64,000 nt of DNA from positions 7,196 to 71,195 of the IMG/VR virus record IMGVR_UViG_3300047402_000065. The stretch is one strand, 5' to 3'. The notes under the pieces are model-generated. The model had not been told where the DNA came from. It worked only from the letters and a program-made list of their open reading frames with translations, and did not search any database. A program made the position numbers and the translations under genes. The stretch is from a virus. Taxonomy: Duplodnaviria > Caudoviricetes. Positions 2,581 to 54,198 of this stretch are shown here, in pieces. Each line of letters starts with the position of its first letter. Position 1 is the stretch's first letter.

Positions 2581-3918
2581 ATGAAACAAGGACTATACCT
2601 CAGACAGATGACCGTCGAGCACTTCATGGGCGTCGACTACCAAGAGATTAACTTCGATAACGGCAATGTCGTACTCATCGGTGGCAACGGCGCCGGCAAG
2701 TCTTCGCTCATCCGAGCCCTGCTATCGCCTATCGACAGCAAGTGGATCCCCGACAAGCCCATCAAGGCTGGGGAGGAGCGCGGAAGCATCATCCTGAAGA
2801 TCGATGGCACACGCAATGGACAGAAGGAAGAGTATGAGATACAGTGTGTGTTCACTCCATCAAACCAGCGCGGTAAGATATCCATCATCCGTAACGGAGA
2901 AAAAGTTAAAGGCGGTGAGAAAACCATCCTCAACCAGATATTCGGACGCATAGGCTTCTCCATCACAGACTTCTTCAACGCCTCAGAGAAAGAACGCCTG
3001 CAGATGCTCAAAGAGGTCAGTAAGTGCGGTGACAAAATCGACAAGCTCGATCATCAGCGTGCCGAAGCGGAGGTCGTCAGAAAGGTCGCAAAAGCAGAGC
3101 TGGAGAAGATGAAGAATGTCAACTCCCGCGAGGCAAGACCCTTCACCGATGAAGACATCGACAAATACCGCAAGAAAGAGGATGAAGAAGCCCTCCAGGT
3201 AGAGCTCAAAGAGGTGTCCTCCCGCATCGAGAAATACAACGAGAACTATCAGAAGATAGAGACTGCCCGCCGACAGATGGATGAGGCCGTCAAGAGAGCC
3301 GACGAGATAGGCGAAGAGATAACACGCCTCAACGCAGAGCTGGACGCTAAGAAAATCCAGATGCTCGAGAAGACCTCCTTCGTAGCGTCAAAACAGAAAT
3401 GGCTGAAAGAACAAGCCGAGCCGTGGCTCGAACGCAATAAAACCAAGCCATCCACAGATGCGGTGATCGCCCGTATCGCTGATGTACGCAAGCATAACCA
3501 GATGGTAGAGATCATCTCCCAGTATGCCGACAGGCAGAAAGGCATCCTATCCAAACAGGAGGAAGTGGAAGAACTGGAAGAGAGAATAAAGGCTATTGAC
3601 AAGCAGAAGATAGATGTCATCGCCTCCTCGCAACTGCCGGTGGACGGCCTGCTCTGGGGCGAAGACGGGGTGACACTCAACGGAATACCCGTAGAACAGG
3701 TCAACACACAAAAGCAGCTCGACCTGGCCATAGCCATAGCAACGGCGATGAATCCGACATTGAAACTTGTTGTGATCAGCGAGGGCTCCCTGTTTGACAG
3801 CACCCACCTGAAGTCAACACTTGACACATTGACAGAGCGAGGGTTCTACTGGGTAGTAGAGAAGGTGGCCCAGGATGGCACCCCGCTGGAAATAAAATAC
3901 GAGGAGAGAAGCGCATGA
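2581..3918 (+). CDS. SMC/RecF/SbcC-like ABC ATPase with coiled coil
   Basis: Walker A GGNGAGKSS near N-terminus, long coiled coil, C-terminal signature/Walker B-like region; start moved to ATG 2581 behind an A-rich leader. Confidence 0.75.
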   Translation: MKQGLYLRQMTVEHFMGVDYQEINFDNGNVVLIGGNGAGKSSLIRALLSPIDSKWIPDKPIKAGEERGSIILKIDGTRNGQKEEYEIQCVFTPSNQRGKISIIRNGEKVKGGEKTILNQIFGRIGFSITDFFNASEKERLQMLKEVSKCGDKIDKLDHQRAEAEVVRKVAKAELEKMKNVNSREARPFTDEDIDKYRKKEDEEALQVELKEVSSRIEKYNENYQKIETARRQMDEAVKRADEIGEEITRLNAELDAKKIQMLEKTSFVASKQKWLKEQAEPWLERNKTKPSTDAVIARIADVRKHNQMVEIISQYADRQKGILSKQEEVEELEERIKAIDKQKIDVIASSQLPVDGLLWGEDGVTLNGIPVEQVNTQKQLDLAIAIATAMNPTLKLVVISEGSLFDSTHLKSTLDTLTERGFYWVVEKVAQDGTPLEIKYEERSA

Positions 3919-5645
3919 ACGACATTAGATTAGAAGGCACCATACTGCTGTGTTATCAGAAGGTGTGGCCCACAGAAGTCCTCGAAGTGGCAAAATTCCT
4001 GTGGATGACCATCGACCCGCAGACCAACGTCATCTCTATCAACCTCCCTATGACATACAAGAAAGGAGTCATCGCCTTTCTGCGTCACGCCTATCCGACT
4101 TTCATGCGATCACCACAGCATAAGGCCGACAGAGCCGCCCTGCAGCAGGACCTGCAGCAGGCTTATAACTCCATTTACCTCGACTTCGAGCAGCACCAGG
4201 CTCCGCTCATCCCGTACTGGGATCACGTCTATGATGAGGTGCATGACACTTACACCCCACTCTTCCAACATCAGAAAGAAGCTATCGTGGCGATGTACCA
4301 TCGCAAGAATAACTTCCTGGCCTACGAGATGAGGACGGGTAAGACCATCACAAGCATGTCTAACGCTCTTGCATCCCGCTCCCGCAGAACAGTGATCGTC
4401 TGCTACGATGTGGGCAAATTCTCATTCATGAAGGATCTATGCAGCAAGCGATGGAATAAGCATATCCAGTCCTTCGACCCATTTGAGTTCACCGTGCTCT
4501 GCTCGGCACGTCGCAGGACCATCCACGCCTTTAACGAGAAGTACGTCATAGTCAACTACGAGGCGGTGACCAAGTACCTCGACGCGCTCATCCACTCCGG
4601 CACAAAAGCGACCGATCACATCATCTTTGACGAAGCTCAAAAAGTAAAATCAACCAGTACAGCTACACACAGGATATGCCGACAGCTCATCGAGGAGTGC
4701 CCCGACGCACGACTTACCATGATGACCGGCACGCCGGTCATGAACCGCATAGACGACCTATTCGCATACTTCAAGATGAGCAAGCACCCCCTTGGAGAGT
4801 CCCGCGCTCACTTTGAGAAGCTGTTCATCATCCGAAACAATAACCAACGTAGCTCAAAAGTAACAGGTGTCAGGCAAGCCGACCTGCTGAGCGATATACT
4901 TGGCAACTTCATGCTCCGCAAGCGCCTCGATGAATGTGTGGATGTACCCAAGAAGGCGCACGTCAAGCTCTACTACCCTCTGGGCGAGTATGAGCAGGCC
5001 TATGACGACGCCGTCCGTGCTGCGCTGATAACAGAGGGTAAGGTTAACGAGAGCAACTTCTCCTCACTCACCTCACTGATGGCTCAGGCTAAGTGCCCAG
5101 GCACCATCGAGCAGATTAAACTCCTTGTGGATCAGGGAGAAAAGGTCGTCGTCTTCACGTCTTACTCTAAGCCTCTTGACATCCTCTCGGAGGCGATGAG
5201 AAGCGAGAAGATAGGGTATGTCAGAGTGGACGGCAAGATAGATGGCGCGGAGAAAGTAGCTCGTGCCGAAAAGTTTAATACCGATCCTGAGTGTAAGGTA
5301 TTCCTAGGTCAGATGAGGGCTGCCGGACACTCCATATCTCTATACGCAGCTAACCATACCATCATCCTCAACCAGCCTCTCACCGCCTCAGATATCAAGC
5401 AGTGTCTGTTCCGAGACGTGACCATGACCAAGCAGCAGGCCAGCACAGTATACTATGCTATATGCACGCGTGACGATGGCGAGGCGACCATAGATGAGGT
5501 AGTGCTCGACCTGAACATCAGCAAGTACGAAGATGCCAACGATGTGATAGATCGCGGAGAGGCCATGACAAGCATAGAAAATGCCGCCGAGGTAGTATAC
5601 AGGGCGATGATGGAACAATACGAAAAACAACACGCAGACTTATGA
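3915..5645 (+). CDS. SNF2-family helicase/ATPase
   Basis: Motifs EMRTGKT, IIFDEAQ, TGTPVMN, KVVVFT, RVDG, AAGHSISL; ATGA coupling. Confidence 0.8.
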   Translation: MNDIRLEGTILLCYQKVWPTEVLEVAKFLWMTIDPQTNVISINLPMTYKKGVIAFLRHAYPTFMRSPQHKADRAALQQDLQQAYNSIYLDFEQHQAPLIPYWDHVYDEVHDTYTPLFQHQKEAIVAMYHRKNNFLAYEMRTGKTITSMSNALASRSRRTVIVCYDVGKFSFMKDLCSKRWNKHIQSFDPFEFTVLCSARRRTIHAFNEKYVIVNYEAVTKYLDALIHSGTKATDHIIFDEAQKVKSTSTATHRICRQLIEECPDARLTMMTGTPVMNRIDDLFAYFKMSKHPLGESRAHFEKLFIIRNNNQRSSKVTGVRQADLLSDILGNFMLRKRLDECVDVPKKAHVKLYYPLGEYEQAYDDAVRAALITEGKVNESNFSSLTSLMAQAKCPGTIEQIKLLVDQGEKVVVFTSYSKPLDILSEAMRSEKIGYVRVDGKIDGAEKVARAEKFNTDPECKVFLGQMRAAGHSISLYAANHTIILNQPLTASDIKQCLFRDVTMTKQQASTVYYAICTRDDGEATIDEVVLDLNISKYEDANDVIDRGEAMTSIENAAEVVYRAMMEQYEKQHADL

Positions 5646-6790
5646 AAAGCATAACCATGTCCCGCGATGCGTTCGTCAGCGCATCCTCCAAAGCCTTTCC
5701 GTTTATCGAGAAAGATGTTACTCTACCGATCTATTCATGCTATCGCCTTGACTTCGATGGCACCAACCTATACATCACCGCCTCTATGGGTGGTAATCAC
5801 CAGATCACCACCTTCTGTGCTGCGCAGGGCGACAAGTTTACTGTATGCGTATCAGCATACATGCTCCATAAACTAGCGTTATCTCTGATCGAGAGCGAGC
5901 TGACCTTTCAGTTTCCTGAAAGCAAGGGACAGCTAAAGCACCTGCGCATAACAGGGAGAGGTCATAAGCACGACCTACCTATCTTTGACCCAGTAGACTT
6001 CTACATACTGCCGGAACCGGAGAAGAGGAGCCGTGCACGTATCAAGGGATCGGTATTCACCGGGATGATAGGGGTGGCCATGAGTCTTATCGACTCCAAG
6101 CGCAATGAGATGCACCCGCAGATGGCGGGAATCAACATGACCCTGCACGAAGCGCTGCCTGGATCCTTCATTATGCAGGGAGGCACAGGACATTCTTTCG
6201 CCGTCGCCGAATATCCGGCCTGCGGCATAGACAAGTGGGACGCTGTCACCATAGACAAAGCTCCTGTAAAAGACATCGCTGAATTAGTGCAAGGACACGA
6301 AGATGTGGAGATGTATCACGACAACATGAGGGTGGTCATCTCTACCGCCTCGGCTCGCATATCCACCCGATTGCTCGAAGGCAAGTTCCCGGATATGGCC
6401 AAGCTGCTGACCAGCGTCAAGACAACAGGTCGCATAAGGCTTAACGCAGGAGAGATCGGCATGGCACTCAGGCGCCTGTCTTATCATAAAAGCGAGACCG
6501 TCAAGATACTGGTAATGAATATACCAGACCATGGCAACATGGTATTGTCGCTCGACAACAACGAACAGGGGTCTATCGGCAATGAAGAGGTGGAGTTATC
6601 TGGCAACCCAGAGCCAGTAGTGATGGGGTTCAGCCATACGCTACTCAGTGAATCTCTGCGCTCGGCACATGCGGTATCCCTGGAGTTATCATACTCAGTG
6701 CATGACAAGCCTATGGTCATCACCGCCACAGAGTCGGAAGACAACAGGTGGAATTGTTCAATACTCATCGCCCCGACACGAATCAAATGA
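5642..6790 (+). CDS. dnaN: DNA polymerase III beta sliding clamp homolog
   Basis: 382 aa; STRLLEGKFPDM motif, MGFSHTLL and terminal LIAPTRI match the DnaN pattern. Confidence 0.8.
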   Translation: MKSITMSRDAFVSASSKAFPFIEKDVTLPIYSCYRLDFDGTNLYITASMGGNHQITTFCAAQGDKFTVCVSAYMLHKLALSLIESELTFQFPESKGQLKHLRITGRGHKHDLPIFDPVDFYILPEPEKRSRARIKGSVFTGMIGVAMSLIDSKRNEMHPQMAGINMTLHEALPGSFIMQGGTGHSFAVAEYPACGIDKWDAVTIDKAPVKDIAELVQGHEDVEMYHDNMRVVISTASARISTRLLEGKFPDMAKLLTSVKTTGRIRLNAGEIGMALRRLSYHKSETVKILVMNIPDHGNMVLSLDNNEQGSIGNEEVELSGNPEPVVMGFSHTLLSESLRSAHAVSLELSYSVHDKPMVITATESEDNRWNCSILIAPTRIK

Positions 6791-8544
6791 ATATCAGCAT
6801 CTATAAAAATGCGCTGGACCACAAGGGCACGACAGACTCCCTTATCGCAGTCCTCAAGCGCATCAAAAACGGAACGTACGCCCAGCAGATAAAGCATCTG
6901 CGATCGCTCGATAAAGAGCAGTATGCGGAAGAAAAGAAGTCGCTGCTGCCGGCAGCGACTTTCTCAGGGCTATTCGAGCCCACACGCCTCGACGCTAATC
7001 TAAGAGCGTACTCAGGGCTGATCACCTGCGACATAGACCATTTGCTTGAAGAGGAGTTTGACGACACAAGGGCGGCTATCTGCGCTGACGCACACACCTA
7101 CTGCCTGTTTACATCCCCCGGCGGTGATGGGCTGAAGGTGCTCGTACCTGTAACATCGGGCAAGGAACATCATAAGCAGGCCTTCAACTGCGTCAGAGAG
7201 TATTTCCTATCGCAGTTCGGAGTAGAGCTGGACCCATCAGGTAAGAATGAGGCTCGCCTCTGCTTCGTAAGCCACGACCCTGACCTGTACTTCAACGGTA
7301 AGGCGACGCCTCTGCCGGTCATCATCGACGAGGCCGTCGCCAAGACCGTATACTCGGATCGTACCAAGACCTACGGAGATTTCCGGGTGACGGAAGACGA
7401 CCGCAAGAAGTACGAGGTATGCGCTATGTGGGCAGATTTCTACACGCCCTATCAGGAAGGGCAGCGTAATACCCATATCTACAAGCTATCGTGTAACCTT
7501 AACAGGGTGGGCGTGAAGCGCGAGACGGCAATGCTGATGATACTACGCGACAAGACAGATTTCCCTGTTGACGAGTGCAAAGATGTAGTGTATAAATGCT
7601 ATGCCGCCAACGCATCAGAGCATGGCACGCAGAGCATCTACGACTTCGAGCAGGAGCAGGACGCACAGCGTGGCATGCTTGAGTATTCCTCGCCAGGAAG
7701 CATCATGGAACGTCTCATTAATGCTCCCGTCACCGGACTCATCCCCACGGGCTACCCCAAGCGGGACATGATGTTCGGCGGTGGCATGCAGCGATCCAGC
7801 GTATATGCTTACATAGGACGCGAGAAGACCTTCAAGAGCGTCGACGCCATACGCACCGCCTGTCATGTAGCAGCGGCAACAGGCCCTGTACTGTACTTCA
7901 ACGGCGAGATGAGCGAGCTTCAGTACATGCAGATAGTAGCACAGCAGGAACTCGGAGTACGGAGAATCCATTTCCAGCAGGAGCGTGAGCGCATAGCAGA
8001 ATACTACAAGAACCACCTCGGTAAGCTGTGCATCGTCTCCGGCTCGGACTTCACTCGTGACCAGGCGGAGAAGACTATCAACGCCATGCGCATAAAACTG
8101 GGCGAAGATCCTGTGCTGATCATCTACGACGGCCTCAAGCAGATGTCATCGGGTCGGCAGCGCGAAGCCATCCTATCCATGATAGAGAATGCTGGCGTAG
8201 CCAAAGAGGTCGCCAAGACTACCAACTGCGCGGTAGTAGTGCTGATACATACCGATGCCAAATGTAAGTACTGGCACCGTAACCCAAGAGATTTTGTACT
8301 GGGCAAGACACAGGTGACGCGTAATTTCGACGGGTCAGTATCTTTCTCCCGCTTCATACAGGATGGCTCCTTCCAGGATGAATACACCTACGAGCTTCGC
8401 AACGACGTATATTGCGTCAAGGTACAGGATGACCGCCTCACCGGAGAGTCTGACTTCGTAGTAATGGACCTCTCTACGAACGTGGTACCCGCCGAGAGCG
8501 AACAGGATATAGTCATGCTCGAAGTAAAAATGAACGAAGACTAA
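6787..8544 (+). CDS. primase-helicase (BT4734/VirE N-terminal, PriCT-1-like, DnaB/RepA-like helicase)
   Basis: KKSLLPAATFSG, CDIDH, FTSPGGDGLK, RLCFVSHDP; EGQRNTHIYKL; Walker A-like GREKTFKS and YFNGEMSE; start taken at ATG 6787 overlapping clamp TGA. Confidence 0.75.
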   Translation: MNISIYKNALDHKGTTDSLIAVLKRIKNGTYAQQIKHLRSLDKEQYAEEKKSLLPAATFSGLFEPTRLDANLRAYSGLITCDIDHLLEEEFDDTRAAICADAHTYCLFTSPGGDGLKVLVPVTSGKEHHKQAFNCVREYFLSQFGVELDPSGKNEARLCFVSHDPDLYFNGKATPLPVIIDEAVAKTVYSDRTKTYGDFRVTEDDRKKYEVCAMWADFYTPYQEGQRNTHIYKLSCNLNRVGVKRETAMLMILRDKTDFPVDECKDVVYKCYAANASEHGTQSIYDFEQEQDAQRGMLEYSSPGSIMERLINAPVTGLIPTGYPKRDMMFGGGMQRSSVYAYIGREKTFKSVDAIRTACHVAAATGPVLYFNGEMSELQYMQIVAQQELGVRRIHFQQERERIAEYYKNHLGKLCIVSGSDFTRDQAEKTINAMRIKLGEDPVLIIYDGLKQMSSGRQREAILSMIENAGVAKEVAKTTNCAVVVLIHTDAKCKYWHRNPRDFVLGKTQVTRNFDGSVSFSRFIQDGSFQDEYTYELRNDVYCVKVQDDRLTGESDFVVMDLSTNVVPAESEQDIVMLEVKMNED

Positions 8545-8602
8545 CGGTTTGCAGCTTGGCGTTCGGCTGAGGAACGAAGCTGACGCTAAGGTGCTGTTAT
8601 AG
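8539..8602 (+). repeat. attC-like palindromic site 1
   Basis: GACTAAC (contains primase stop TAA 8542-8544) GGTTT GCAGCTTGGCGTTCGGCT - GAGGAACGA - AGCTGACGCTAAGGTGC T GTTATAG; imperfect hairpin. Confidence 0.75.
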
Positions 8603-8634
8603 CCAGTAGCGGTTAGTTTAGTAGGAACTTAAAT

Positions 8635-9375
8635 ATGGAACACGAACAAATGTTTTTAAAAATGCGAAGCGAAGGGAAATTAAAATTACTTGACTTATTT
8701 TGTTGTGCTGGTGGTGCAGGATATGGCTATCATCTTGCTGGGCTTGAAGTAGTAGGAGTGGACATAGAGCCACAGCCCGAATACCCATTTGAGTTTATAC
8801 AAACCGATGCTATACAATACTGCAAGGAGCATGGACATAAGTTTGACTTTATCCACGCATCACCGCCCTGCCAACATTTTACGAAATACAATAATTGCAG
8901 AAAAAACCTGAAAGAAAAGTATGAGGACTTGATACAACCAACAAGGGCGGTGTTAATTGAAAGTGGAAAACCTTATGTAATGGAGAATGTGGTTGGAGCT
9001 CCGTTAATCAATCCAATAACATTGTGTGGCTCTATGTTCGGACTTGACGTGCGTAGGCATAGATTGTTTGAAAGCAATTTGGAAATACCACAACTCAAAT
9101 GTGACCATAAAATTTGGCAACCAAACAGATTTCCAGGCGGTAGGTCAAGAGAGCGAGGACACGCAAGGGTGTTGTGTAGAGGAACAGTTGAAATTGGTAG
9201 ATGGAATATTCCGATAAAGACACAGCAAGATGCAATGGGCATTGATTGGATAAACGAGTTACGAAAGTTGAGCGAAAGCATCCCGCCAGCTTACACAAAA
9301 TATATCGGTGAACAATTTTTGTGCGGTGGGGCATTTTTAAAAACATTTGAACCGAAAACTAAATATGGAACGTGA
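8635..9375 (+). CDS. C5-cytosine DNA methyltransferase-like protein (cassette 1)
   Basis: LDLFCCAGGAG (motif I), HASPPCQ (catalytic PC), MENV, RRHRLFE; AT-rich. Confidence 0.8.
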   Translation: MEHEQMFLKMRSEGKLKLLDLFCCAGGAGYGYHLAGLEVVGVDIEPQPEYPFEFIQTDAIQYCKEHGHKFDFIHASPPCQHFTKYNNCRKNLKEKYEDLIQPTRAVLIESGKPYVMENVVGAPLINPITLCGSMFGLDVRRHRLFESNLEIPQLKCDHKIWQPNRFPGGRSRERGHARVLCRGTVEIGRWNIPIKTQQDAMGIDWINELRKLSESIPPAYTKYIGEQFLCGGAFLKTFEPKTKYGT

Positions 9376-9382
9376 ATGTAGC

Positions 9383-9490
9383 ATTGCTGGTAACGGTGGC
9401 GATTGGCGAAGTAAAAGCCGACCACAAATGTTGATGCGAAGCACTATACTAAATCGGCTTTTATTTTGCCAATTGCGTGTTACCAGTAGT
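9383..9490 (+). repeat. attC-like palindromic site 2
   Basis: ATTGCTGGTAAC...GTTACCAGTAGT; inner arms GCGATTGGCGAAGTAAAAGCCGA / TCGGCTTTTATTTTGCCAATTGC pair at all 23 positions if three G-T wobbles are allowed. Confidence 0.85.
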
Positions 9491-9558
9491 GTGGTTAATG
9501 TGCAGAAACTTAAATACGAAGATGAAAACCTTTTTTATTAAAACTTTTTAGCGAGGGA

Positions 9559-10227
9559 ATGAAAATATTAAATTTATATAGCGGAGTAGGAGGCAATAGA
9601 AAATTGTGGGGTAACGACCATGATATTACGGCAGTAGAGTATAATGAAAATATTGCCAAAGTTTATAGAAATCAATTTCCAAATGACAAATTGATTATAG
9701 CAGACGCACACCAATATTTACTTGACCATTATTCAGAGTTTGATTTTATATGGAGTAGCCCACCTTGTCCAACACACTCAAAGATGTGCTTTGCTAAAAA
9801 ACAGAAAGAGTATATTGATTTTAAATTATACCAAGAAATTATATTACTGAAAAGTTGGTTTAAAGGTAAGTTTGTCGTTGAAAATGTGATACCTTATTAC
9901 GAACCGCTAATTAAACCAAATGTAATTTTAGGCAGACATCCATTTTGGACAAACTTTGAAGTAATAGAAAAGGAGTTTAAAAACATAGACATAAGCCGTT
10001 CTAATGCTAATGACTTATTGAGTGAACGAGGAATTGATATGAGTATCTTTGATTGTATAAAAGATGTTCCTGAAAATCGTTCAAAAGACAACAGATTTGA
10101 GAGGATGCAATTAGTTAGAAATATGGTTAATCCTGAAATCGGTTTACACATTTTAAATTGTGCGTTGGCAAAAAGTTTTAATAAAAAAGATTATGAGCAG
10201 AAAAGTTTATTCGGTGGACAAATGTAG
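9559..10227 (+). CDS. C5-cytosine DNA methyltransferase-like protein (cassette 2)
   Basis: ILNLYSGVGGN, WSSPPCPTHS, VVENV, GRHPFWTNF, RNMVNPEIG; AT-rich. Confidence 0.8.
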   Translation: MKILNLYSGVGGNRKLWGNDHDITAVEYNENIAKVYRNQFPNDKLIIADAHQYLLDHYSEFDFIWSSPPCPTHSKMCFAKKQKEYIDFKLYQEIILLKSWFKGKFVVENVIPYYEPLIKPNVILGRHPFWTNFEVIEKEFKNIDISRSNANDLLSERGIDMSIFDCIKDVPENRSKDNRFERMQLVRNMVNPEIGLHILNCALAKSFNKKDYEQKSLFGGQM

Positions 10228-10228
10228 C

Positions 10229-10319
10229 ATTACTGGTAACGGGTTGCAACTAACCGATGAGGGCATAACAAACTAAGTGCTTTCGCCCTTATTGGTTAAT
10301 TGCTGTTAGTTGCAGTACC
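10229..10319 (+). repeat. attC-like palindromic site 3
   Basis: ATTACTGGTAAC...GTTAGTTGCAGTACC; inner arms GCAACTAACCGATGAGGGC / GCCCTTATTGGTTAATTGC; left flank is a 21/22 direct repeat of the site 2 left flank (9375-9396 vs 10221-10242). Confidence 0.85.
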
Positions 10320-10345
10320 GATTTAATAACGATAAAATTAATTAT

Positions 10346-10792
10346 ATGAAAACATTTGTATTAACAGTATCAAAACAGTTTCCGAAAACTCATATTCGGG
10401 CAGGAGAAAGTACTCGTTTTGTGGAAAACATTAAAAGGCTTTTTACTAATGAATGTGAGAAGATACATACCATTAGAGCAAATTATGAGTTGTGGGAGAA
10501 ACGAGCAAAAGAGATTAACGAAGGTAAAGCTATTCTATCAATTAGATATTGGAGCGATAAACCATATAACTCAAAGCAAGTTGAAATTTGCAGACTTGAA
10601 AAAATTGGAATTGAAAAGTTAGAAGACCCGACAAACTTTGTTTATGCTCCAATAGGTGATAAAGCTATTAACTGGGAAACATTAGCAATAAATGACGGAT
10701 TAACATTCGAGGACTTTTGCGAGTGGTTTAAAGTCAGAAGTAAAAAGCCTATGGCAGTAATTCACTTCACGGATTTTAGGTATTGCAACTAA
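10346..10792 (+). CDS. hypothetical protein, possibly ASCH/PUA-like (cassette 3)
   Basis: 148 aa from ATG 10346; KIHTIRANY...LSIRYWSDKPY...NDGLTFEDFCEWF; stop TAA lies inside the AACTAAC box. Confidence 0.65.
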   Translation: MKTFVLTVSKQFPKTHIRAGESTRFVENIKRLFTNECEKIHTIRANYELWEKRAKEINEGKAILSIRYWSDKPYNSKQVEICRLEKIGIEKLEDPTNFVYAPIGDKAINWETLAINDGLTFEDFCEWFKVRSKKPMAVIHFTDFRYCN

Positions 10793-10793
10793 C
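10779..10793 (+). repeat. attC-like left half-site 4 (right arm not found)
   Basis: GGTATTGCAACTAAC is the reverse complement (14/15) of the cassette 3 start GTTAGTTGCAGTACC (10305-10319). Confidence 0.7.
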
Positions 10794-10825
10794 TACCGGA
10801 TAAGCGCAACAAATGTAGGACGAAA

Positions 10826-11002
10826 ATGAGCAAACTAATTCATATCTACCGAATTAGAATTTCCGATTCAGACAAGGAAATGATAAGTGAATTAAAGCGA
10901 CATCAAATCAATCCTCAGAGGTTCATTCGATCTGCATTCAAAGAAAAATACGCATCGACAAAGATGCCTGATTTAACACCAAGAGAAAAACTACCATTCT
11001 GA
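10826..11002 (+). CDS. 58-aa small protein, ribbon-helix-helix-like (not in ORF track)
   Basis: Read by hand: MSKLIHIYRIRISDSDKEMISELKRHQINPQRFIRSAFKEKYASTKMPDLTPREKLPF; TGA overlaps ATG of next gene. Confidence 0.6.
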   Translation: MSKLIHIYRIRISDSDKEMISELKRHQINPQRFIRSAFKEKYASTKMPDLTPREKLPF

Positions 11003-11358
11003 TGAAACAACAACTATCGCCCGTAGGATCGCATGTAGATATTGCTCCAATGTCCGTCAACAAGTGTTGGCAGGGGCAACGATTCAAAACAAAAGGGTAT
11101 AGACAATACGAGATGGCTGTGATGCTGCGTCTTCCAAAATTGACACTACCCGCACCTCCCTACAAGATCACGCTTGAGTTCGGTGTGAGCAGTAAGCTGG
11201 CAGATTGGGACAACCCCGTAAAACCATTCCAGGACATCCTGCAGAAGAAGTATAAGTTCAATGACAAGGACATCTATGAGGCGGTGATACGTAAGTACGA
11301 TGTAGAAAAGGGGAAGGAATATATCTCTTTTATCATCGAAACGCTTGTCCGTGAATAG
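11002..11358 (+). CDS. RusA-like Holliday junction resolvase
   Basis: PMSVNKCW, ADWDNPVKPFQDILQ, FNDKDI, V+K...E motifs of the RusA family. Confidence 0.75.
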   Translation: MKQQLSPVGSHVDIAPMSVNKCWQGQRFKTKGYRQYEMAVMLRLPKLTLPAPPYKITLEFGVSSKLADWDNPVKPFQDILQKKYKFNDKDIYEAVIRKYDVEKGKEYISFIIETLVRE

Positions 11359-11378
11359 GTAAGTGCGTATATTCGCCC

Positions 11379-11744
11379 ATGTTTCTCACGGTACAAGAGG
11401 TAAATAAGAACGAGGACGGCATCATGGCTGTCCGCACCAACTCCATCATCGTTGAGAACATCGTCAAATACCGCGAGTTCCGCAAAGGACCACTCCATAC
11501 GGATATCGAGGGTAAGCTAACCAAGGTGGATATGGTACGGAATGATGGCTTTGAATACTTTCATGTCATCGCCGAAGATCCTTTTCACTTCGAGAACAGG
11601 GTAAACAAGGTAAAATGGCTTCTTCAGAACAGCAATGTCCGGTATGTGGATCCCTCGGAGATGATATCCTCTACTCCAGAGCCATCCGCACAGCCTTCAG
11701 AGAACAGTGCGCCAAGCGCGGAGTCTCAGAGCGAGACGTCATAA
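11379..11744 (+). CDS. hypothetical protein
   Basis: 121 aa ORF in operon; low-complexity C-terminus. Confidence 0.55.
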   Translation: MFLTVQEVNKNEDGIMAVRTNSIIVENIVKYREFRKGPLHTDIEGKLTKVDMVRNDGFEYFHVIAEDPFHFENRVNKVKWLLQNSNVRYVDPSEMISSTPEPSAQPSENSAPSAESQSETS

Positions 11745-11926
11745 AGATCGCCGGCCTTAGCGAAGAGTGGTATACCCGCTGGATGCTCGGCGACCCCCGC
11801 AAGAAATACCGGGAACGTAACAAGCTCGAGGTATATGCTGCCGTCAAGGAAGCCCTACGCATGGTAGGCATAGAACTTAAAGTAACAATGGTCATCAAGG
11901 ATGAAAGCTCAAGGAACACTGCTTAA
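11615..11926 (+). CDS. putative Cro/CI-like HTH protein (start uncertain, overlaps upstream gene)
   Basis: RGVSERDVIKIAGLSEEWYTRW helix-turn-helix pattern; fills the gap between 11744 and 11901. Confidence 0.45.
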   Translation: MASSEQQCPVCGSLGDDILYSRAIRTAFREQCAKRGVSERDVIKIAGLSEEWYTRWMLGDPRKKYRERNKLEVYAAVKEALRMVGIELKVTMVIKDESSRNTA

Positions 11927-12188
11927 AAAGCCACTGGAAGAAGAGATGCGCCCCCTCATAGCCCGAATGCTCGGGATGATGGACTACGCCATCAAAGCTG
12001 ACAAGGTGAATAGCAAGAAGGCCTGTGACGACCTCATCGCCGAGCTGAACGCATCGAAGAGGGATATCGACCTTATGATCCGGCGCTGCCGTAACAAGCA
12101 GTGGGACCTGGACAAGGCCGCCGCCTATGCCAAGCGAGGGGTAGGCCCCGACCAGGACGAGGCGGTGCACAATGAAGTAGATCACTAA
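11901..12188 (+). CDS. hypothetical protein
   Basis: 95 aa helical ORF in operon. Confidence 0.55.
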   Translation: MKAQGTLLKKPLEEEMRPLIARMLGMMDYAIKADKVNSKKACDDLIAELNASKRDIDLMIRRCRNKQWDLDKAAAYAKRGVGPDQDEAVHNEVDH

Positions 12189-12219
12189 TCAATCAATAAA
12201 CAACCAAAAACAGGTACCA

Positions 12220-12549
12220 ATGGTAGAACCAGGTAAACAAAGTGTCAGAGCTGACGCCATGCGCCGCAGCCTGAATGATATGCGAGACCAGCATATCAAC
12301 ACCCTGCTCGACGAGCGACGGGTGATCCAGAGCAACCTCGCACAGAACGAGGTCGATCTCAAATTCATGGGCTTTGAGTGGCCCGAGGAAGACGATCTCA
12401 TAGAGCGTATCAAGAGACAGGTGGTCGACCTCTCTGAGATGTATCAGAAGGCCAGCAAGAGAGAGGCGGAGCTTCTCAAGGCAAACGAGTCCCTGGTCAA
12501 TCAGATCGAGGCGATGAAACAGAAACGTAAACCAATAAAAAAGAAATAA
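12220..12549 (+). CDS. hypothetical coiled-coil protein
   Basis: 109 aa, A-rich leader. Confidence 0.6.
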   Translation: MVEPGKQSVRADAMRRSLNDMRDQHINTLLDERRVIQSNLAQNEVDLKFMGFEWPEEDDLIERIKRQVVDLSEMYQKASKREAELLKANESLVNQIEAMKQKRKPIKKK

Positions 12550-12552
12550 CCT

Positions 12553-13212
12553 ATGGCACGTCAATCAATCGGAGGCAACTCCTTCGGAACAAAGTGGAAC
12601 CCGTCAGTAGATGGAGACGGAAACCCAAAAGACAAAGCGGATAAAGGCGACTTCGTACAGGGCTACCTGATCGAGCACGAAGAGAAGACCTTCGCGAATA
12701 ACAACAACCCCTCTCAGATATACACTATCGAGATCGCCCAGGACCCTAATGATGGCGAAGACTACAAAGGCTTCGGCACTGAAGGCGAGAAGATCTCCCT
12801 GTTCGGATGCGCTGTACTGGACAAGAAGATGGCTGAGGTCATGCAGAGCCGCGGACTTGGGGTATGGGTGCACGTAGAGTATAAGGGACGCGAGCTGAAG
12901 AAAGCCTGCAAGCAGATACTCGAGAAGAACCCTCGTAAGAAGTTCGAGAGCAAGGACTACGTGAAGCTCTTTGACGTGGCTACCGACACCGAGATCCCGT
13001 CCAAAGAAGGGTTCAGCAAGCCGGCCTACAAGCCCGTGGTGAACAACAGCGCACCCGCACCGGCAGAAGCTCTTCCGGACTCACTCGATGACGAGCCGGA
13101 ACTCCTGGAAGAGGAAAAGCCCAAAAGCAAGCCTGCTCCTGCAAAGAAGGCTCCTGCCAAAAGCAGCGACCTGGTGATGAATCAGGATGACGCAGAGGAT
13201 ATGCCATTCTAA
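12553..13212 (+). CDS. single-stranded DNA-binding protein (putative)
   Basis: OB-fold-like N-terminus, Pro/Ala/Lys linker, acidic tail DDAEDMPF resembling the bacterial SSB C-terminus. Confidence 0.65.
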   Translation: MARQSIGGNSFGTKWNPSVDGDGNPKDKADKGDFVQGYLIEHEEKTFANNNNPSQIYTIEIAQDPNDGEDYKGFGTEGEKISLFGCAVLDKKMAEVMQSRGLGVWVHVEYKGRELKKACKQILEKNPRKKFESKDYVKLFDVATDTEIPSKEGFSKPAYKPVVNNSAPAPAEALPDSLDDEPELLEEEKPKSKPAPAKKAPAKSSDLVMNQDDAEDMPF

Positions 13213-13238
13213 GTAAACGCAGGACCCTATGAATCGAG

Positions 13239-13266
13239 AAGGGCGGTAGTGATACCGCCCTTTTTT
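13239..13266 (+). terminator. intrinsic terminator between convergent arms
   Basis: AAGGGCGGTA-GTGA-TACCGCCCTT followed by a T run. Confidence 0.85.
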
Positions 13267-13495
13267 ATTCCTGCTCAGCTTCTTCCATTTCCTCGCCCGA
13301 TGCCTTGAATAGCTCTACGAGCCTGGCCACTGCCTTGGAGGCTTCGCTGGCCTTATAGACCTCCTCTTCGGTAGCATACTTGGCCGTGCGATCATACGTC
13401 CCCCGGCCTACATAGTAGCAACAGGTGTAACGGATCACGAACCCGTTCTCTACGGGTCGCATACTGATGGAGTCTGACTGTATCTCGTGTGCCAT
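13265..13495 (-). CDS. hypothetical protein
   Basis: 76 aa, last gene of minus-strand operon. Confidence 0.55.
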   Translation of the reverse strand: MAHEIQSDSISMRPVENGFVIRYTCCYYVGRGTYDRTAKYATEEEVYKASEASKAVARLVELFKASGEEMEEAEQE

Positions 13496-13497
13496 GA

Positions 13498-13833
13498 TTA
13501 TACAGGTATTGATGCCGCTACGGCGTTCTCAAAAGCTGTGCATGCCGCCTGATCGCCAGTCACCCATGTAGGATGAGTACCCTGATCGACATCCTGCAAC
13601 TCGAAAGAGAGCTCCTTGCCATCGTTCCATGTGATCACCGCCCATGTCTGGGTGGGGTATGGATAGGCGATGCCAGGATAGGCGTTGAATACAGCCTTCA
13701 CCCTTGTGATGGTCTTTTTCATGTGCCACTCTTCATTCTGGGTGTATCCCGAATTGGTGGCTGTCTTGAACATCGGATCTGCGTTTGTCAGCAGATTGAT
13801 GAACAGAACCGGACGTCCTGAGTTATATGCCAT
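13498..13833 (-). CDS. hypothetical protein, probably virion-associated
   Basis: 111 aa, tightly packed in structural operon. Confidence 0.55.
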   Translation of the reverse strand: MAYNSGRPVLFINLLTNADPMFKTATNSGYTQNEEWHMKKTITRVKAVFNAYPGIAYPYPTQTWAVITWNDGKELSFELQDVDQGTHPTWVTGDQAACTAFENAVAASIPV

Positions 13834-13840
13834 GGTCTTC

Positions 13841-15064
13841 TTATACTAAGGTGAATGTTTTCCACGCCCCACTGACGCGAATGAATACGTCGGTACCGTC
13901 GAAATAGATGTCTCCATCGCTAGGCAACGTAGGTGCTATCCCTGCCGTGATGTTTATTGATGCGTGGCCTGTAGTTCCGGCGGACAACTGAACAATAGCA
14001 TCATTCATGGTCAGCGTGCTGTACATGGTCGTGTTTGCGCCGGCCTTACCAAACTGGATGATAGAGGCGTTTGTTGTGAATGCAGACACTGTGCCGTTAG
14101 GCGTGTCGCAGTCAAACAATCCATTGTCGGTCATCAACACCATCGGGGTGTTCATCCAGAAGTAGATATCATGCCTGACCGCAGCATACCCCTCGCTCAG
14201 TGAGAAGGCCGGGTCATACCCTACGATTGACGTGATGTCAGCCTGCTTGCCTGCAATGAACCATGCCGGATGGTAACCTGTGATATCTGTGGTAGTGAAT
14301 GAATATGGGCTGTCGATAGTATAGCTTGACCAGTAGTAGGTATTTTTATGACCTATTCCTGCCCCATCTTTGGGTCCCCCATTTTTGCCGTATCCATATA
14401 TCCAGAACTCACCGAACTTTCCTCCGTCGGTCGTAACCTGGAAGAGATCACCTGTAGCTCCGAAAAGCATCTCGGTGCCGTCCACTGTAGGCGACTTGAA
14501 CTTGTCGCTGTTGCTCAGGATAGGATCAGTTCCGCCAGATGGATTGCCGTTCGCAAGAACCTGAGCCCATGTCAGTGCGCCACCACCACCGCCAGTAGGA
14601 AGTGAGGAGACGAGCGCTGACACACTCATGGCAACGTAGTACGTAACCAGCGTGGGGTTGCCCTGCTCGCGTACCGAGAAGTGGCACCCGCCACCATCAG
14701 CCTCGATAGGTCCGACAATGGACGGCAGGTAGAACATAAAGTCCTTGGCAGGAGAATATGTCACAGGATCCTTGGTGGCTCCGGAGAACTTCTTGTAAAC
14801 AGGAATGACAGCCAGATTGTAGTCCATCGCCGCGATAGCACTCAGGCTCTCTGTGACGGTCCACGCATCTGCATTCACATTGTCGCTCTGTGCCTTCTGG
14901 AAGTTGTCGGTGCTGCGCACGTGCACAACCACCGGCGACCCTCCGCCATCAGGCGTAGGACAGGTGATGTCGCTCACATCAATGGCGATCTCGCCGGAAT
15001 ATGTCTTGCCATTCTTGGCTGAAGCGGTCAGAAGAATAATATCTGCTACTGTTGCTGTTGGCAT
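13841..15064 (-). CDS. putative fibre/spike protein
   Basis: 407 aa, Gly/Thr-rich beta-strand composition; GGGGALTWAQVLANGN linker and GDIYFDGTDVFIRVSGAWK terminal motif seen in fibre proteins. Confidence 0.55.
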   Translation of the reverse strand: MPTATVADIILLTASAKNGKTYSGEIAIDVSDITCPTPDGGGSPVVVHVRSTDNFQKAQSDNVNADAWTVTESLSAIAAMDYNLAVIPVYKKFSGATKDPVTYSPAKDFMFYLPSIVGPIEADGGGCHFSVREQGNPTLVTYYVAMSVSALVSSLPTGGGGGALTWAQVLANGNPSGGTDPILSNSDKFKSPTVDGTEMLFGATGDLFQVTTDGGKFGEFWIYGYGKNGGPKDGAGIGHKNTYYWSSYTIDSPYSFTTTDITGYHPAWFIAGKQADITSIVGYDPAFSLSEGYAAVRHDIYFWMNTPMVLMTDNGLFDCDTPNGTVSAFTTNASIIQFGKAGANTTMYSTLTMNDAIVQLSAGTTGHASINITAGIAPTLPSDGDIYFDGTDVFIRVSGAWKTFTLV

Positions 15065-39383: not shown

Positions 39384-39429
39384 TTTTACCTTGTTTAACG
39401 TGTTTACAGTATTTGATTATTTGAAAGAG

Positions 39430-39457
39430 ATGGGAGCAGGTGTTACCCTGCTCCCAT
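39430..39457 (-). terminator. stem-loop after major capsid gene (terminator or mRNA stabilizer)
   Basis: ATGGGAGCAGG-TGTTAC-CCTGCTCCCAT, 11-bp stem; weak U tract. Confidence 0.6.
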
Positions 39458-39472
39458 TATCATATCCGGTTA

Positions 39473-50805: not shown

Positions 50806-51617
50806 ATACCAACGACAAGAAGCATGAGATGGATGATGACGCCATCATCCACGACAACGATCACCTGCGAGTGGAACCAAAAAAAGTAGTAAGTGCATGT
50901 TGCAATGCCATAGTGGCAACATCGTCAGACGAGCCACCCGTAACTATATGTGTTGGTTGCGGCAACCCGTGCATGACAATCGAAGGGAGGTACTTCCAGG
51001 CGACGCCACTCACATCGTTACCCGTGAAGACACATCTCGAAGAGGCAGATGCGCATCAAGGCACTGTGAATGACGAGATCAAGTTCCGCCACGCCTCCCT
51101 GAACAGCTTCCGCCCCTTCTTCAAGGGCTTTCCCTTCTCCGGCAACACCATCTATCAGGCGTTGATGACAGAAGACATACAGGATGATGCCGTCATCTCC
51201 GTGGGCATGGAGCAGATCGACACCATCCTGCGCCCATCCCCTTTCGAGCCGGAGCACTATGGCTTTAAGATGGACAAGAAGGACAAGATGATGCAGACCT
51301 ATATCTCCGCCCGGTCCAACGGCACGATGATCATCCTCAAGAAAAAGAGCGACAAGAACACCGGCTACTGGTCGCTGATGAGCCGCTCTACCGACGGCAA
51401 CAAAGTATTCTTCCCCGAGTTCCAGGTGTTCATCCCCAACGACCTCGCAGCGCGAATCCTGCTGACATCTCTGGGTATGATACCACGCGCAGACCTCGGC
51501 GAGGACGGGCAGGGGTGTGTAAATGACGAGGATAAGGATGGCATCTGCCCGCAGTGCGAGAACGTAGGCTATTGCGTGATGGACGCGAAAAAAGTTGTGG
51601 CAGATAAAACAGAATAA
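50802..51617 (+). CDS. hypothetical protein with CxxC motifs
   Basis: SACC..CVGCGNPC and CPQC..C. Confidence 0.6.
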   Translation: MNTNDKKHEMDDDAIIHDNDHLRVEPKKVVSACCNAIVATSSDEPPVTICVGCGNPCMTIEGRYFQATPLTSLPVKTHLEEADAHQGTVNDEIKFRHASLNSFRPFFKGFPFSGNTIYQALMTEDIQDDAVISVGMEQIDTILRPSPFEPEHYGFKMDKKDKMMQTYISARSNGTMIILKKKSDKNTGYWSLMSRSTDGNKVFFPEFQVFIPNDLAARILLTSLGMIPRADLGEDGQGCVNDEDKDGICPQCENVGYCVMDAKKVVADKTE

Positions 51618-51619
51618 CG

Positions 51620-51659
51620 TATTTTTGGGTCACCGCCTTCGCACGATGAGGCGGTGACC
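51620..51659 (+). promoter_or_regulatory. -7 promoter element followed by a strong 5' leader hairpin
   Basis: TATTTTTG 51620-51627; 11-bp stem GGTCACCGCCT/AGGCGGTGACC ending 4 nt before ATG 51664; no U tract. Confidence 0.5.
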
Positions 51660-51663
51660 GTAC

Positions 51664-54198
51664 ATGACGTATATTGTTACCACTCTTACGCAGAACATCG
51701 GTGAGACGGATGCTGACTACGAGCTTCGCGTACAGACGTTCATCAACGATCAGAACTACTACTACGTACAGGTAGGCGGCGAATACCCTACTACAAAAGT
51801 ATCGGGCAACGCCGCGTATATCGGATACCCTCCCATCGAGCCCATACACGAGGAGCTGATATACGACCCCACCAATAGCCAGAACATCCACACCAAGACA
51901 TTCGCCTACGATAATGTTTACTATTACATCTACATAGGCGCATCGCCACCATTTCCGCCCGCACCGCCATTTCCGGTAACAGGGGATATCGTTATGTTCG
52001 GGCCAGGCGGAACCCTGGCCGATACCGGCTTCGCCGTAGATACCGGCGCCACAACCGTTGATTGGAATGGCTATCAGCTAAAAAACCTACAAGATGGCGT
52101 TGACCCGCAAGACGCAGCAACAGTAGCACAGATAACAGCCGGTCCGCAAGGAGCGCAAGGCGCACAGGGAAGCCAGGGCACACAAGGCGCACAGGGCGAT
52201 GCCGGAGCGCAAGGTTCACAGGGGAGTCAAGGCACACAAGGCTCGCAGGGAAACACGGGACTGCAGGGTCCGCAAGGAGCACAAGGATTTCAGGGAAACC
52301 AAGGCAGCCAGGGTAGCGTAGGGGCTCAGGGAAGTCAGGGCAGTACAGGCTCGCAGGGCTTACAGGGTAATCAGGGTATTGTTGGAGGATGGACGCTGCT
52401 GTTTCAGTATAAAAATGGGTTCGGAGTTCCTACCAGCGGAGTTCTTCGCATGGATGACAATGATCCTACGCTTGCTACTGAGATAAGGGTCAGTAAGACA
52501 GACAGAAACTCTGTAAGCATTTCCGATGCTCTTGATTTGATAACTGACGGATATACGTTAAAGATATTCAGCGAAGTGGACGGGGTGTCATTTTTCACAT
52601 ACCTGGTCACCGCCTTTGATAATTCTCAGCCGACATACGATTCCATTTCTGTTACATTCTTATCCGGAAGTGGGTCATTTACAAATAATGACAATATAGG
52701 CTTTTCATATTCCATAATAGGACCACAGGGTATGCAGGGTAGCCAGGGGTCGATTGGATCACAGGGAAGTCAAGGGGCGGCTGGTTCTCAGGGCAGCACA
52801 GGCGCTCAGGGTTCACAGGGGGCTACTGGCGCCCAGGGATCACAGGGATCTGCTGGTGCTCAAGGTGCGACTGGCTCACAAGGCAATCAAGGCTTTCAAG
52901 GAGATACAGGAGCGCAGGGAAATCAGGGAAACGCAGGTGCTCAAGGCAGCCAAGGCAGCACAGGATCTCAGGGAAGTCAAGGAAATCAAGGGTTGCAGGG
53001 TGCTACAGGCAGTCAAGGAAGTCAGGGATCAACAGGCTCACAGGGATCAACAGGCTCACAGGGTTTACAAGGCTCAACCGGATCACAAGGCTCTCAGGGC
53101 AGCCAAGGTTCTCAGGGATCGGCTGGCGCTCAAGGATCACAGGGATCACAGGGAAGTCAGGGGTCGCAAGGAGCGACAACCGTTGCAATGGTGTACTCCA
53201 ACACCTCAGTAGCAGGCGGTGACACGATTGCAAATACAGCCTCGGAAACAACATTCACCGATCCAAACTACTCCATTCCGGCAAACTCACTCGTGGCTGG
53301 ATCGGTAGTTCGTGTGAAGGCGTGGGGAGTGTATTCGACAAAGGTGGCAACAACGCCTACGCTGACAATTAAGATGAAAGTTGGTGGAACACTGTTTATA
53401 TCCACAGGGGCCGTTACCAATTCGGGAGGTCTGACAAATGCAGGATGGTACACCGAGGGCTACTTCACCGTGTTCACAACAGGAGCCGGAGGAACTTGCG
53501 ATGCTCAGGGATTCACTGAACTATCTACGGCAGTGACCACCGCTAACGTGGTTAATATGTCAAATACCGGAACAAAGGCTATCGACACGACAGCAGGAAA
53601 CGCGGTGATCATTACAGCTCAATGGGGAACTGCCGACGCAGCAAATACAATCACACTTCGTCAGGTTGAAATCTTTATTGATAATCTCTCAGGAGCAGGA
53701 TCTGCAGGAACATTCCTTCAGGTTGCTAACAACCTGAGCGATCTCAATAATTTGGTTACTTCCAGATCAAATCTTGGCGCACCATTTGAATTAATGCTTT
53801 GTTTTCCATCTACTTTTTCCCCTGCCGATGCAACTACTTACTATGCGGGGAATGGAGCAATTACACCTACAACAACCGCAACCGCACATGACTTCAATTT
53901 AGGCTATGCACTAACAATTATTGGAGCCATAGTGTATGTGTCTAATAACAGTACGGCAGGATCGAGCGAAAATATTACACTTCAAATACGCAACACAACA
54001 CAAGCCACATCGTCAAGTATTGGGACTTTTCAATCGAATTTGGGAAGTTTGACAAATACAGAAGCGCAATCATTTACAGGGTTGAATATATCGGTTGCGT
54101 CCACGGATTCTATATGTGCTCAATTTGATTGCCCGACATGGGCTACAAATCCAATATCAACTGCATGGCGGGTATTTTTAATATGTATTAGAGCATAA
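51664..54198 (+). CDS. collagen-like fibre protein (G-x-Q repeats)
   Basis: Two long (G-S/A/T-Q) blocks at about 52141-52380 and 52720-53175 separated by globular domains; [10 protein letters not shown]...RSNLG fibre motif. Confidence 0.8.

Follow-up and report, generated by a model that had tools for sequence, protein, structure and literature searches.

In a complete phage genome of 71,195 bp (IMG/VR virus record IMGVR_UViG_3300047402_000065, Caudoviricetes), an AT-rich block within the replication module can with fairly high confidence be read as an array of three mobile gene cassettes that has no recombinase of its own and forms part of an integron-like system found in Bacteroidota and in their phages. 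The analysed window comprises bases 7196-71195 of this record (64,000 nucleotides), which has direct terminal repeats and is rated complete; all positions below are those of the window unless a contig is named. The block occupies 8542-10793, continuing to about 11000, and contains four open reading frames (ORFs) between the genes for a primase-helicase and a RusA-like resolvase. Three of these ORFs form one-gene units, separated by hairpins bounded by TAAC and GTTA boxes (sites 1 to 3; Table 1). A first-pass annotation made from the sequence alone had drawn attention to this arrangement and to stop codons placed in or near the left-hand box, and both features are present as described, with the stops of all four upstream genes lying in the left box or at most 16 nt from it. 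The stop of the primase-helicase gene (TAA, 8542-8544) supplies the first three bases of the first TAAC box, those of genes 1 and 2 are TGA (9373-9375) and TAG (10225-10227), and that of gene 3 (TAA, 10790-10792) again lies inside TAAC.

A covarying family of cassette sites

Sites 2 and 3 have a 16-mer in common (GCATTRCTGGTAACGG), which gave 81 matches in IMG/VR, near the chance expectation. About 24 of these matches share a common architecture, consisting of a box, a variable long hairpin and then T-GTTA; the other ~57 are chance matches, as expected for a word of this length. A first scan for TAAC...GTTA hairpins that relied on energy only was unspecific and was replaced by a pair-count scan and then by a covariance model, R1, built on 21 aligned sites from other contigs with no window sequence included. 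R1 recognizes sites 2 and 3 (Table 1) and, more weakly, site 1, which is matched only with filters off (E 2e-4 in 3 kb); the half-site at the end of the array scores 3.2 bits, which is not significant. The model is strand-specific: read on the minus strand, the stretches that hold sites 2 and 3 score 8.9 and 9.5 bits. Across IMG/VR loci it found 99 sites in same-strand arrays of up to 17 sites in 13 kb.

The hairpin structure is conserved through compensatory change. RNAalifold places 24 pairs in the MAFFT alignment of the 21 sites, 18 of them with compensatory changes. Two positions are G:T in 20 of the 21 sequences, and the invariant G:T positions lie at columns 19/142 and 37/127. In an alignment of 95 distinct sites, the share of paired cells is 95%, compared with 65% in shuffles, and the covariation score reaches 0.644, against 0.145 in shuffles (0 of 500 attain the score) and ~0.07 with slid partners. 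The spacer is also constant across the family: the TAAC arm has 5 nt (GGNNN), the GTTA arm a single one. Both the covariation on which the first-pass annotation had staked its reading and the asymmetric, non-canonical spacer that it had described are thus properties of the family at large. The outer core consensus is CTGG-TAAC on one side and GTTA-CCAG, -TGTG or -GCGG on the other, AAC and GTT being invariant. Owing to conserved mismatches that read as G:T on the model strand, this strand forms a better fold than the complementary one in 102 of 136 sites. Within the window, site 2 has a DNA fold of -26 kcal/mol (z -5.3, equalled by 0 of 200 shuffles), with the conserved G:T wobbles on the plus strand and a U-run after the inner stem, and sites 1 and 3 both stand at z ~-2 relative to shuffles (-2.05 for site 1).

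Members of the family are also found in bacteria. A pattern scan over one genome per prokaryote species gave 23 matches, ~19 of them in Bacteroidota, and R1 confirmed arrays in several; the matches in Chitinophaga japonensis, Ferruginibacter and Levilactobacillus have no model match and are due to chance. The complete 4.6-Mb Bacteroidales chromosome OZ223471.1 (G007) carries 23 R1 matches, scattered or in small clusters (e.g. at 522-578 kb, 2.015-2.022 Mb and 4.25-4.30 Mb), and one cluster directly adjoins a 299-aa recombinase homologue at 2018037-2018831. The family is therefore not always gathered in a single array. Single copies scattered round a chromosome, short units bounded by hairpins and a terminal inverted repeat peculiar to each gene would also suit small non-autonomous transposable elements moved by a transposase, whether similar to miniature inverted-repeat transposable elements or repetitive extragenic palindromic (REP) elements or equipped with hairpin ends of the IS200/IS605 type. 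Such an origin is hardly tenable, as no target-site duplications were seen, no Y1 transposase was found in the window's phage genome, the units stand strictly head to tail on one strand with one common hairpin per junction, and the sole consistently linked enzyme is an Xer-like tyrosine recombinase.

The cassettes are further characterized by their ends. For 55 neighbouring pairs of sites, the 10 nt that follow GTTA were compared with the 10 nt that precede the next site's TAAC, and the two stretches form a mean of 7.7 Watson-Crick pairs out of 10 (8.9 with wobble). Set against the flank of their own hairpin, the 10 nt after GTTA yield 3.4 pairs, and against random flanks 3.9; the next site beats the own hairpin partner in 51 of the 55 cases. 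Cross-cassette end complementarity across the family is far beyond chance; in integrons, pairing of this kind arises because the crossover lies inside the conserved box. The complementary ends that the first-pass annotation had reported for cassettes 2 and 3 are instances of the same rule, 9479-9491 matching 10228-10240 (13 nt, 92%) and 10305-10319 matching 10779-10793 (15 nt, 93%), with scores of 8/10 and 9/10, respectively. When a cassette's own ends are joined in silico, the fold changes from -15.7 to -24.5 kcal/mol for cassette 3, from -26.0 to -27.8 for cassette 2 and from -13.5 to -15.9 for cassette 1.

Cassettes 1 and 2 have a second tier of inverted repeats, set in from either end by ~45 nt. 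Repeats at mirror positions occur in 20 of 81 family cassettes (25%), compared with 1.7% of controls, their arms standing 40-49 nt after GTTA and 42-53 nt before the next TAAC and being mostly T-rich on the model strand. In single-stranded DNA, these repeats would zip the cassette ends together. Cassette 1 also has a 17-nt direct repeat (TAAATATGGAACRYGAA), present at 8630-8646 over the start codon of gene 1 and again at 9360-9376 before the stop, where the second copy opens a 5-codon mini-ORF. A direct repeat at both cassette ends was rejected as a family-wide trait (score 6.5 vs 6.0 in controls).

The linked recombinase and the position of the crossover

In agreement with the first-pass annotation, which had recognized no tyrosine recombinase in the window, the whole 71,195-bp record was found to contain no tyrosine recombinase, resolvase or Y1 transposase; the array is therefore an orphan. 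Elsewhere, the sites are accompanied by a recombinase gene. On JAUXNJ010000040 (L120/L121), a 242-kb contig of a Sphingobacteriaceae metagenome-assembled genome, at least 14 sites stand on one strand within 20 kb (array 1565-26182), the last of them being 3 kb away from the gene for a 369-aa tyrosine recombinase (L121:5073-6182). Each of the five bacterial genomes inspected has homologues of this recombinase at a distance of 0.1-3.6 kb from sites. The complete 265,845-bp phage IMGVR_UViG_3300000931_000001 (G005) has ~24 sites running across the contig ends (264069-265845 and 282-6446), which directly adjoin a gene for a 267-aa homologue (262963-263766, minus strand) that is 36% identical to, and colinear with, the 369-aa enzyme; further small clusters of sites lie near 194 kb and 245 kb of the same genome. 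Homologues of the 267-aa phage enzyme were collected from 32 IMG/VR loci, 28 of which have enough upstream sequence to judge. Sites are present in 24 of these 28 and number 136, all of them upstream of the recombinase gene and on its strand.

Among NCBIfam models, the 369-aa recombinase matches the XerA/integron integrase model NF040815 with 213 bits (cut-off 220) and, second best, the integron integrase model TIGR02249 with 208 bits (cut-off 265). Its best solved relative is archaeal XerA. Compared with VchIntIA (2A3V), the enzyme aligns in two blocks and has 21 residues where IntIA has 63 (180-242). This region holds the IntI-specific insertion, and the likely enzyme of the sites is an Xer-like tyrosine recombinase that lacks it. 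In 20 loci, a conserved TAAC-TATTATATATA(C/T) stands ~70 nt before the recombinase ATG, after the end box of the last cassette. This docking site is the counterpart of attI; the window has neither the docking site nor the recombinase gene.

The first-pass annotation had placed the crossover at G|TT of the right-hand GTTA box, a position that the breakpoints do not bear out, as they map instead to the TAAC(GG) box on the phage sense strand. BLAST segments that arrays share at 88% identity or more have their start at TAAC+0 (in some cases -1, -3 or -12) of an upstream hairpin and their end at TAAC+5 of the downstream one. Site pairs from different loci that have only the downstream flank in common show a mean core identity of 0.73 (11 of 41 pairs at 0.93 or more), compared with 0.52 for pairs that have only the upstream flank in common and a background of 0.57. 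In addition, the viral contigs L171 and L172 (L171:5943-7171 and L172:688-1916) are 100% identical over 1229 nt, from TAACTATTATATATAC through the recombinase gene, and carry unrelated cassettes immediately 5' of the docking-site TAAC, a natural example of cassette turnover. Because of these segment ends, the covariation of the core with its downstream flank and the divergence of L171 and L172, the crossover probably lies in the TAAC(GG) box of the model strand and not in the GTTA box. If so, the unit on the model strand would consist of a hairpin and what follows it, and a phage hairpin would belong to the next gene. The array of the window begins at the TAAC formed with the primase stop codon, as this ownership rule expects, and in keeping with the rule it closes with the cassette 3 end box and TAAC, beyond which no more than ~15 nt of another element remain.

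A plausible mechanism follows the logic of integrons. On the sense strand, a phage unit would comprise TAAC(GG), the covarying imperfect hairpin, GTTA, 10 nt, the gene, the complementary 10 nt and the next TAAC. Upon excision and circularization, the unit would join its own ends, and the hairpin would be lengthened by a 14-bp stem. The folded single strand would then be the substrate of the Xer-like tyrosine recombinase, with strand exchange in the TAAC box, either with another site or with the docking site (TAAC-TATTATATATAC) just upstream of the recombinase gene. Because the window's phage encodes no such enzyme, its array was probably acquired through, and would now be reshuffled only by, a recombinase from the host or from a co-infecting phage. 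The earlier suggestion of a host or otherwise distinct recombinase that acts in trans stands in so far as the enzyme is not encoded by this phage and an Xer-like one lies beside the same sites in Bacteroidota and large phages; its action in trans on the window's array is presumed.

Several points weigh against this interpretation. All of the evidence is comparative, and the supply of a recombinase in trans to this phage is a supposition. No sites were seen at four of the 28 informative recombinase loci. Ownership follows a statistical rule, since 30 of the 41 pairs with a common downstream flank have cores that are only 0.58-0.75 identical, and an 89% identical copy of the window's cassette 3 in L140 has a different upstream core, the homology running from GCTGTTA (10301) to TAAC+15. 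The alignment of 95 sites was fitted to the model and leans towards its structure; the 21-site MAFFT alignment is model-independent and agrees with it. Lastly, several bacterial records are metagenome bins, and some of the 'bacterial' arrays could be prophage or mis-binned phage DNA.

Gene orientation, cargo and genomic setting

Phages and bacteria differ in how genes are placed between the sites. In 67 of 80 segments of phage arrays, the longest ORF between sites reads along the model strand, and in 2 it is antisense. In bacterial arrays, it is antisense to the model strand in 17 of 19 segments, and the bacterial cassettes, read in gene orientation, therefore look classical, with the ORF followed by the site and CCG|TTA as the crossover. 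In 45% of phage sites and in 0 of 18 bacterial sites, the hairpin contains an ATG from which a reading frame of at least 40 codons runs. An NTG before TTA was considered as a source of start codons and dropped, ATG being no commoner there than TTG, CTG or GTG.

The start codons held by phage hairpins, the better folding of the phage sense strand with its invariant G:U-type wobbles and the U-run after the inner stem of site 2 would fit hairpins that act in RNA, either as terminators or as RNase III or stability elements of a polycistronic transcript. The cassette pattern would then stem from homologous recombination between conserved elements, with the boxes acting as microhomology, as in the promoter-stem-loop cassettes of T4-type phages. 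This explanation is very unlikely. The strand-specific element is antisense to the genes in most bacterial segments, and a transcript-level role therefore cannot be general; likewise, the position and strand of the phage sites are fixed relative to the recombinase gene in 136 of 136 cases, and neither end pairing across 0.2-1.2 kb nor an exact TAAC breakpoint in an identical background is expected of RNA elements. Intrinsic terminators and REP-like elements have a short GC-rich stem with a U-run or are dispersed repeats, whereas the present hairpins have at least 24 pairs and loops of ~60 nt. Together with the gene-specific ends and the antisense placement in bacteria, this identifies them as cassette-type recombination sites, as the first-pass annotation had held, rather than terminators or REP-like elements. 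Two other TAAC...GTTA hairpins in the window (51615-51679 and 39396-39472) have strong GC stems that fold on both strands; they are not matched by the family model and resemble ordinary bidirectional terminators.

Promoter-stem-loop (PeSL) cassettes are known from T4-type phages, in which accessory genes of hyperplastic regions stand between short conserved stem-loops that supposedly favour their shuffling by homologous recombination. The PeSL model is not known to involve a dedicated recombinase, end pairing peculiar to each gene or a counterpart on host chromosomes. The present family resembles PeSL cassettes in having stem-loops that flank accessory genes, but differs in all three of these respects.

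DNA methyltransferases account for 32 of 75 phage cassette ORFs (28 N6/N4 and 4 C5 enzymes). The cassettes of JAUXNJ010000040 encode a BanI endonuclease together with its own C5 methylase, GmrSD, an Eco57I-like enzyme, a YhcG nuclease and antitoxin-like helix-turn-helix proteins, and these defence genes are all antisense to the site strand. In the window, cassettes 1 and 2 each carry an orphan C5 methyltransferase, the most likely role of which is to protect phage DNA from host restriction; the cassette 2 enzyme has a 54% identical homologue directly after a site in the L018 array. The protein encoded by cassette 3 has 919 homologues with identities of up to 94%, and the nucleotide homology of this cassette to L140 covers window positions 10301-10808 and that to L141 positions 10301-10793. 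Its ASCH-like gene is also found at 77-83% nucleotide identity in L142 and L143, contigs without a hairpin site, and some homologues reach 177-189 aa, apparently through a start inside the upstream hairpin (L141).

The two ends of the window's array have degenerated. Site 1 is similar to sites of contigs L019, L053 and L140; its left flank is phage core sequence and its right flank has a 3-nt insertion (GTTA-TAG-CCAGTAGC). At the other end, an orphan TAAC box (10790-10793) is followed by ~15 nt corresponding to the beginning of the element that comes next in L140, and the remainder of the hairpin is missing. Site 1 and the last hairpin are thus decayed, and therefore at most the middle units are still mobile. 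The 58-aa ORF beyond the array had no homologue in any fetched locus and may be an older import or the remnant of a fourth unit.

The composition of the block sets it apart from the surrounding genome. GC content drops from ~0.52 to 0.31-0.42 across 8501-11000, the rest of the phage being at 52%. Relatives of the primase in the protein database (46-49% identity) have no insert and no sites after the primase gene; the genes downstream of it are unrelated to those of the window. The low GC content and the distant primase relatives without the block mark it as an apparently foreign insert of 2.3-2.5 kb imported into the replication module. A search for close primase relatives with an empty site in IMG/VR and in JGI metagenomes returned one irrelevant weak match each. 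No match was obtained against 50,697 phage records by megablast of 5000-15000 or by blastn of one site, and Rfam, applied to 8000-11600 with E up to 10, returned just two chance matches.

Table 1. Features of the cassette array and its neighbourhood, in window coordinates
Feature	Position	Strand	Details
SNF2 helicase gene	3915-5645	+	replication module
Sliding-clamp-like gene	5642-6790	+	replication module
Primase-helicase gene, phage core	6748-8544	+	Pfam: BT4734-like N domain and AAA_25
Site 1, degenerate hairpin	8528-8613	+	TAAC 8542-8545, GTTA 8596-8599; R1 24.2 bits
Cassette 1 cargo, small C5 cytosine DNA methyltransferase, 246 aa	8635-9375	+	PF00145 1.2e-5; phrog_363 DNA methyltransferase 3e-42
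Second-tier inverted repeat, cassette 1	8647-8665 / 9331-9349		19 nt, perfect
Site 2, full hairpin	9377-9496	+	TAAC 9391-9394, GTTA 9479-9482; R1 73.9 bits, E 5e-14
Second-tier inverted repeat, cassette 2	9527-9549 / 10170-10192		23 nt, 96%
Cassette 2 cargo, small C5 cytosine DNA methyltransferase, 222 aa	9559-10227	+	PF00145 4e-8
Site 3, full hairpin	10223-10322	+	TAAC 10237-10240, GTTA 10305-10308; R1 66.5 bits, E 2e-12
Cassette 3 cargo, 148-aa protein of a very widespread family	10346-10792	+	phrog_8581; "ASCH domain protein" by one source
Array right end	10779-10808	+	cassette 3 end box (GGTATTGCAAC-TAAC), pairs with 10305-10319
58-aa ORF	10826-11002	+	AT-rich, no family match; stop overlaps RusA start
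RusA-like resolvase gene, phage core resumes	11002-11358	+	PF05866 weak, 0.009; phrog_11573 at 2e-37

Relation to known systems and implications

The likeness to classical integrons, in particular to sedentary chromosomal ones with homogeneous attC sites of ~125 nt (Vibrio-type repeats), extends over several levels of organization. In both systems, a tyrosine recombinase stands beside a one-strand array of one-gene cassettes, and the sites are imperfect hairpins that keep structure over sequence and have invariant AAC/GTT triplets. The nucleotides that flank each box on the outside are part of the adjacent cassette and complementary to its far end, a docking site lies next to the recombinase gene (seen here in relatives, in 20 loci), and the bacterial arrays also agree in their defence-gene cargo and ORF-then-site polarity. 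The differences concern the enzyme, the sites and the orientation of the parts. The classical integrase has an additional domain (the I2 helix region near patch III), which is not found in the linked recombinase, an enzyme without the IntI-specific insertion that is closest to XerA. Classical attC sites have a ~5-nt spacer on both arms and extrahelical bases, whereas here the spacers measure 5 and 1 nt and invariant wobble or mismatch positions occur instead. The cores, TAAC/GTTA, correspond in part to the classical RYYYAAC/GTTRRRY, AAC/GTT being invariant and the outer three positions not RYYY/RRRY; the paired box extends to 14 bp. Phage ORFs are inverted relative to the site, so that the hairpin precedes the gene and often holds its start, and the phage recombinase gene follows the array in the same orientation.

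Cassette sites have been reported from phages before. A screen of 10,705 phage genomes with IntegronFinder and HattCI yielded three integrons, one In0 and 17 clusters of attC sites lacking integrases (CALINs) with methyltransferase cargo, one of them in Polaribacter phage P12002L, and five of the six phage attCs assayed were used by IntI1 (Qi et al., 2023; PMC9892861). A cluster of attC sites in a phage that has no integrase is therefore an established concept. With three sites in 1.8 kb, the window corresponds to a CALIN (at least two cassette sites and no integrase nearby) by analogy only, its sites not being classical attC. Like the published phage CALINs, which include one in a phage of Bacteroidota, it combines two or more cassette sites in an integrase-less phage with DNA methyltransferase cargo; those clusters, however, have classical geometry and are much less abundant in phages than the present family, which is linked to another recombinase. 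Of the novelty claimed in the first-pass annotation, the integrase-less cluster with methyltransferase cargo has thus been anticipated, and what remains new is the site family and its Xer-like enzyme, no description of which was found in the literature searched.

Given such precedents, the window's sites might be ordinary attC sites of a CALIN that are recombined by a classical host IntI, with nothing new beyond the carrier. The logic of the two systems is alike, down to the core triplets, the end pairing and the arrays beside a tyrosine recombinase; TIGR02249 is the second-best match of that recombinase, bacterial ORFs take the classical position, and phage attCs are usable by IntI1. This account is nonetheless unlikely. 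The linked recombinase falls below both curated cut-offs, has a third of the residues that IntIA has at the IntI-specific insertion and finds its nearest solved relative in archaeal XerA; the spacer and the outer core bases depart from attC, and R1 has no match in phage P12002L. IntegronFinder surveys, moreover, found hardly any integrons in Bacteroidetes, the IntegronFinder 2 survey listing nothing but In0 elements and a single complete integron (PMC9024848). Recombinases without the IntI C-terminal signature near attC sites have been treated as not IntI (Cury et al., 2016), and single-strand hairpin recombination has been tied to the I2 insertion of IntI (PMC7790495).

Xer/dif modules (XerC/D, XerA and plasmid dif modules) offer the closest comparison for the enzyme, which is Xer-like in sequence and length. 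Their sites, in contrast, are short and double-stranded, with two inverted arms and a 6-8-bp centre. The present site is a ~125-nt covarying hairpin with boxes ~100 nt apart, which argues for a folded substrate.

The balance tips slightly towards a broader picture in which Bacteroidota and their phages run a second, independently specialized kind of integron, whose Xer-like recombinase lacks the I2 insertion and acts on folded single-stranded hairpins. Hosts would stock defence genes antisense to the sites, phages would hold and exchange inverted counter-defence genes, among them orphan methyltransferases, and orphan arrays such as that of the window would be serviced in trans during infection. 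Were this the case, the arms race between host and phage would draw on one common cassette-exchange machinery, genes could pass directly between the defence arrays of hosts and the counter-defence arrays of phages, and standard integron finders would miss a large share of cassette biology. The system would also provide a natural test of whether the I2 insertion of IntI is really needed for hairpin recombination. For phages of Bacteroidota, it would explain how anti-restriction methyltransferases are acquired and shuffled, and for the genome studied here, it would account for the foreign block in the replication module and predict which of its parts are still able to move.

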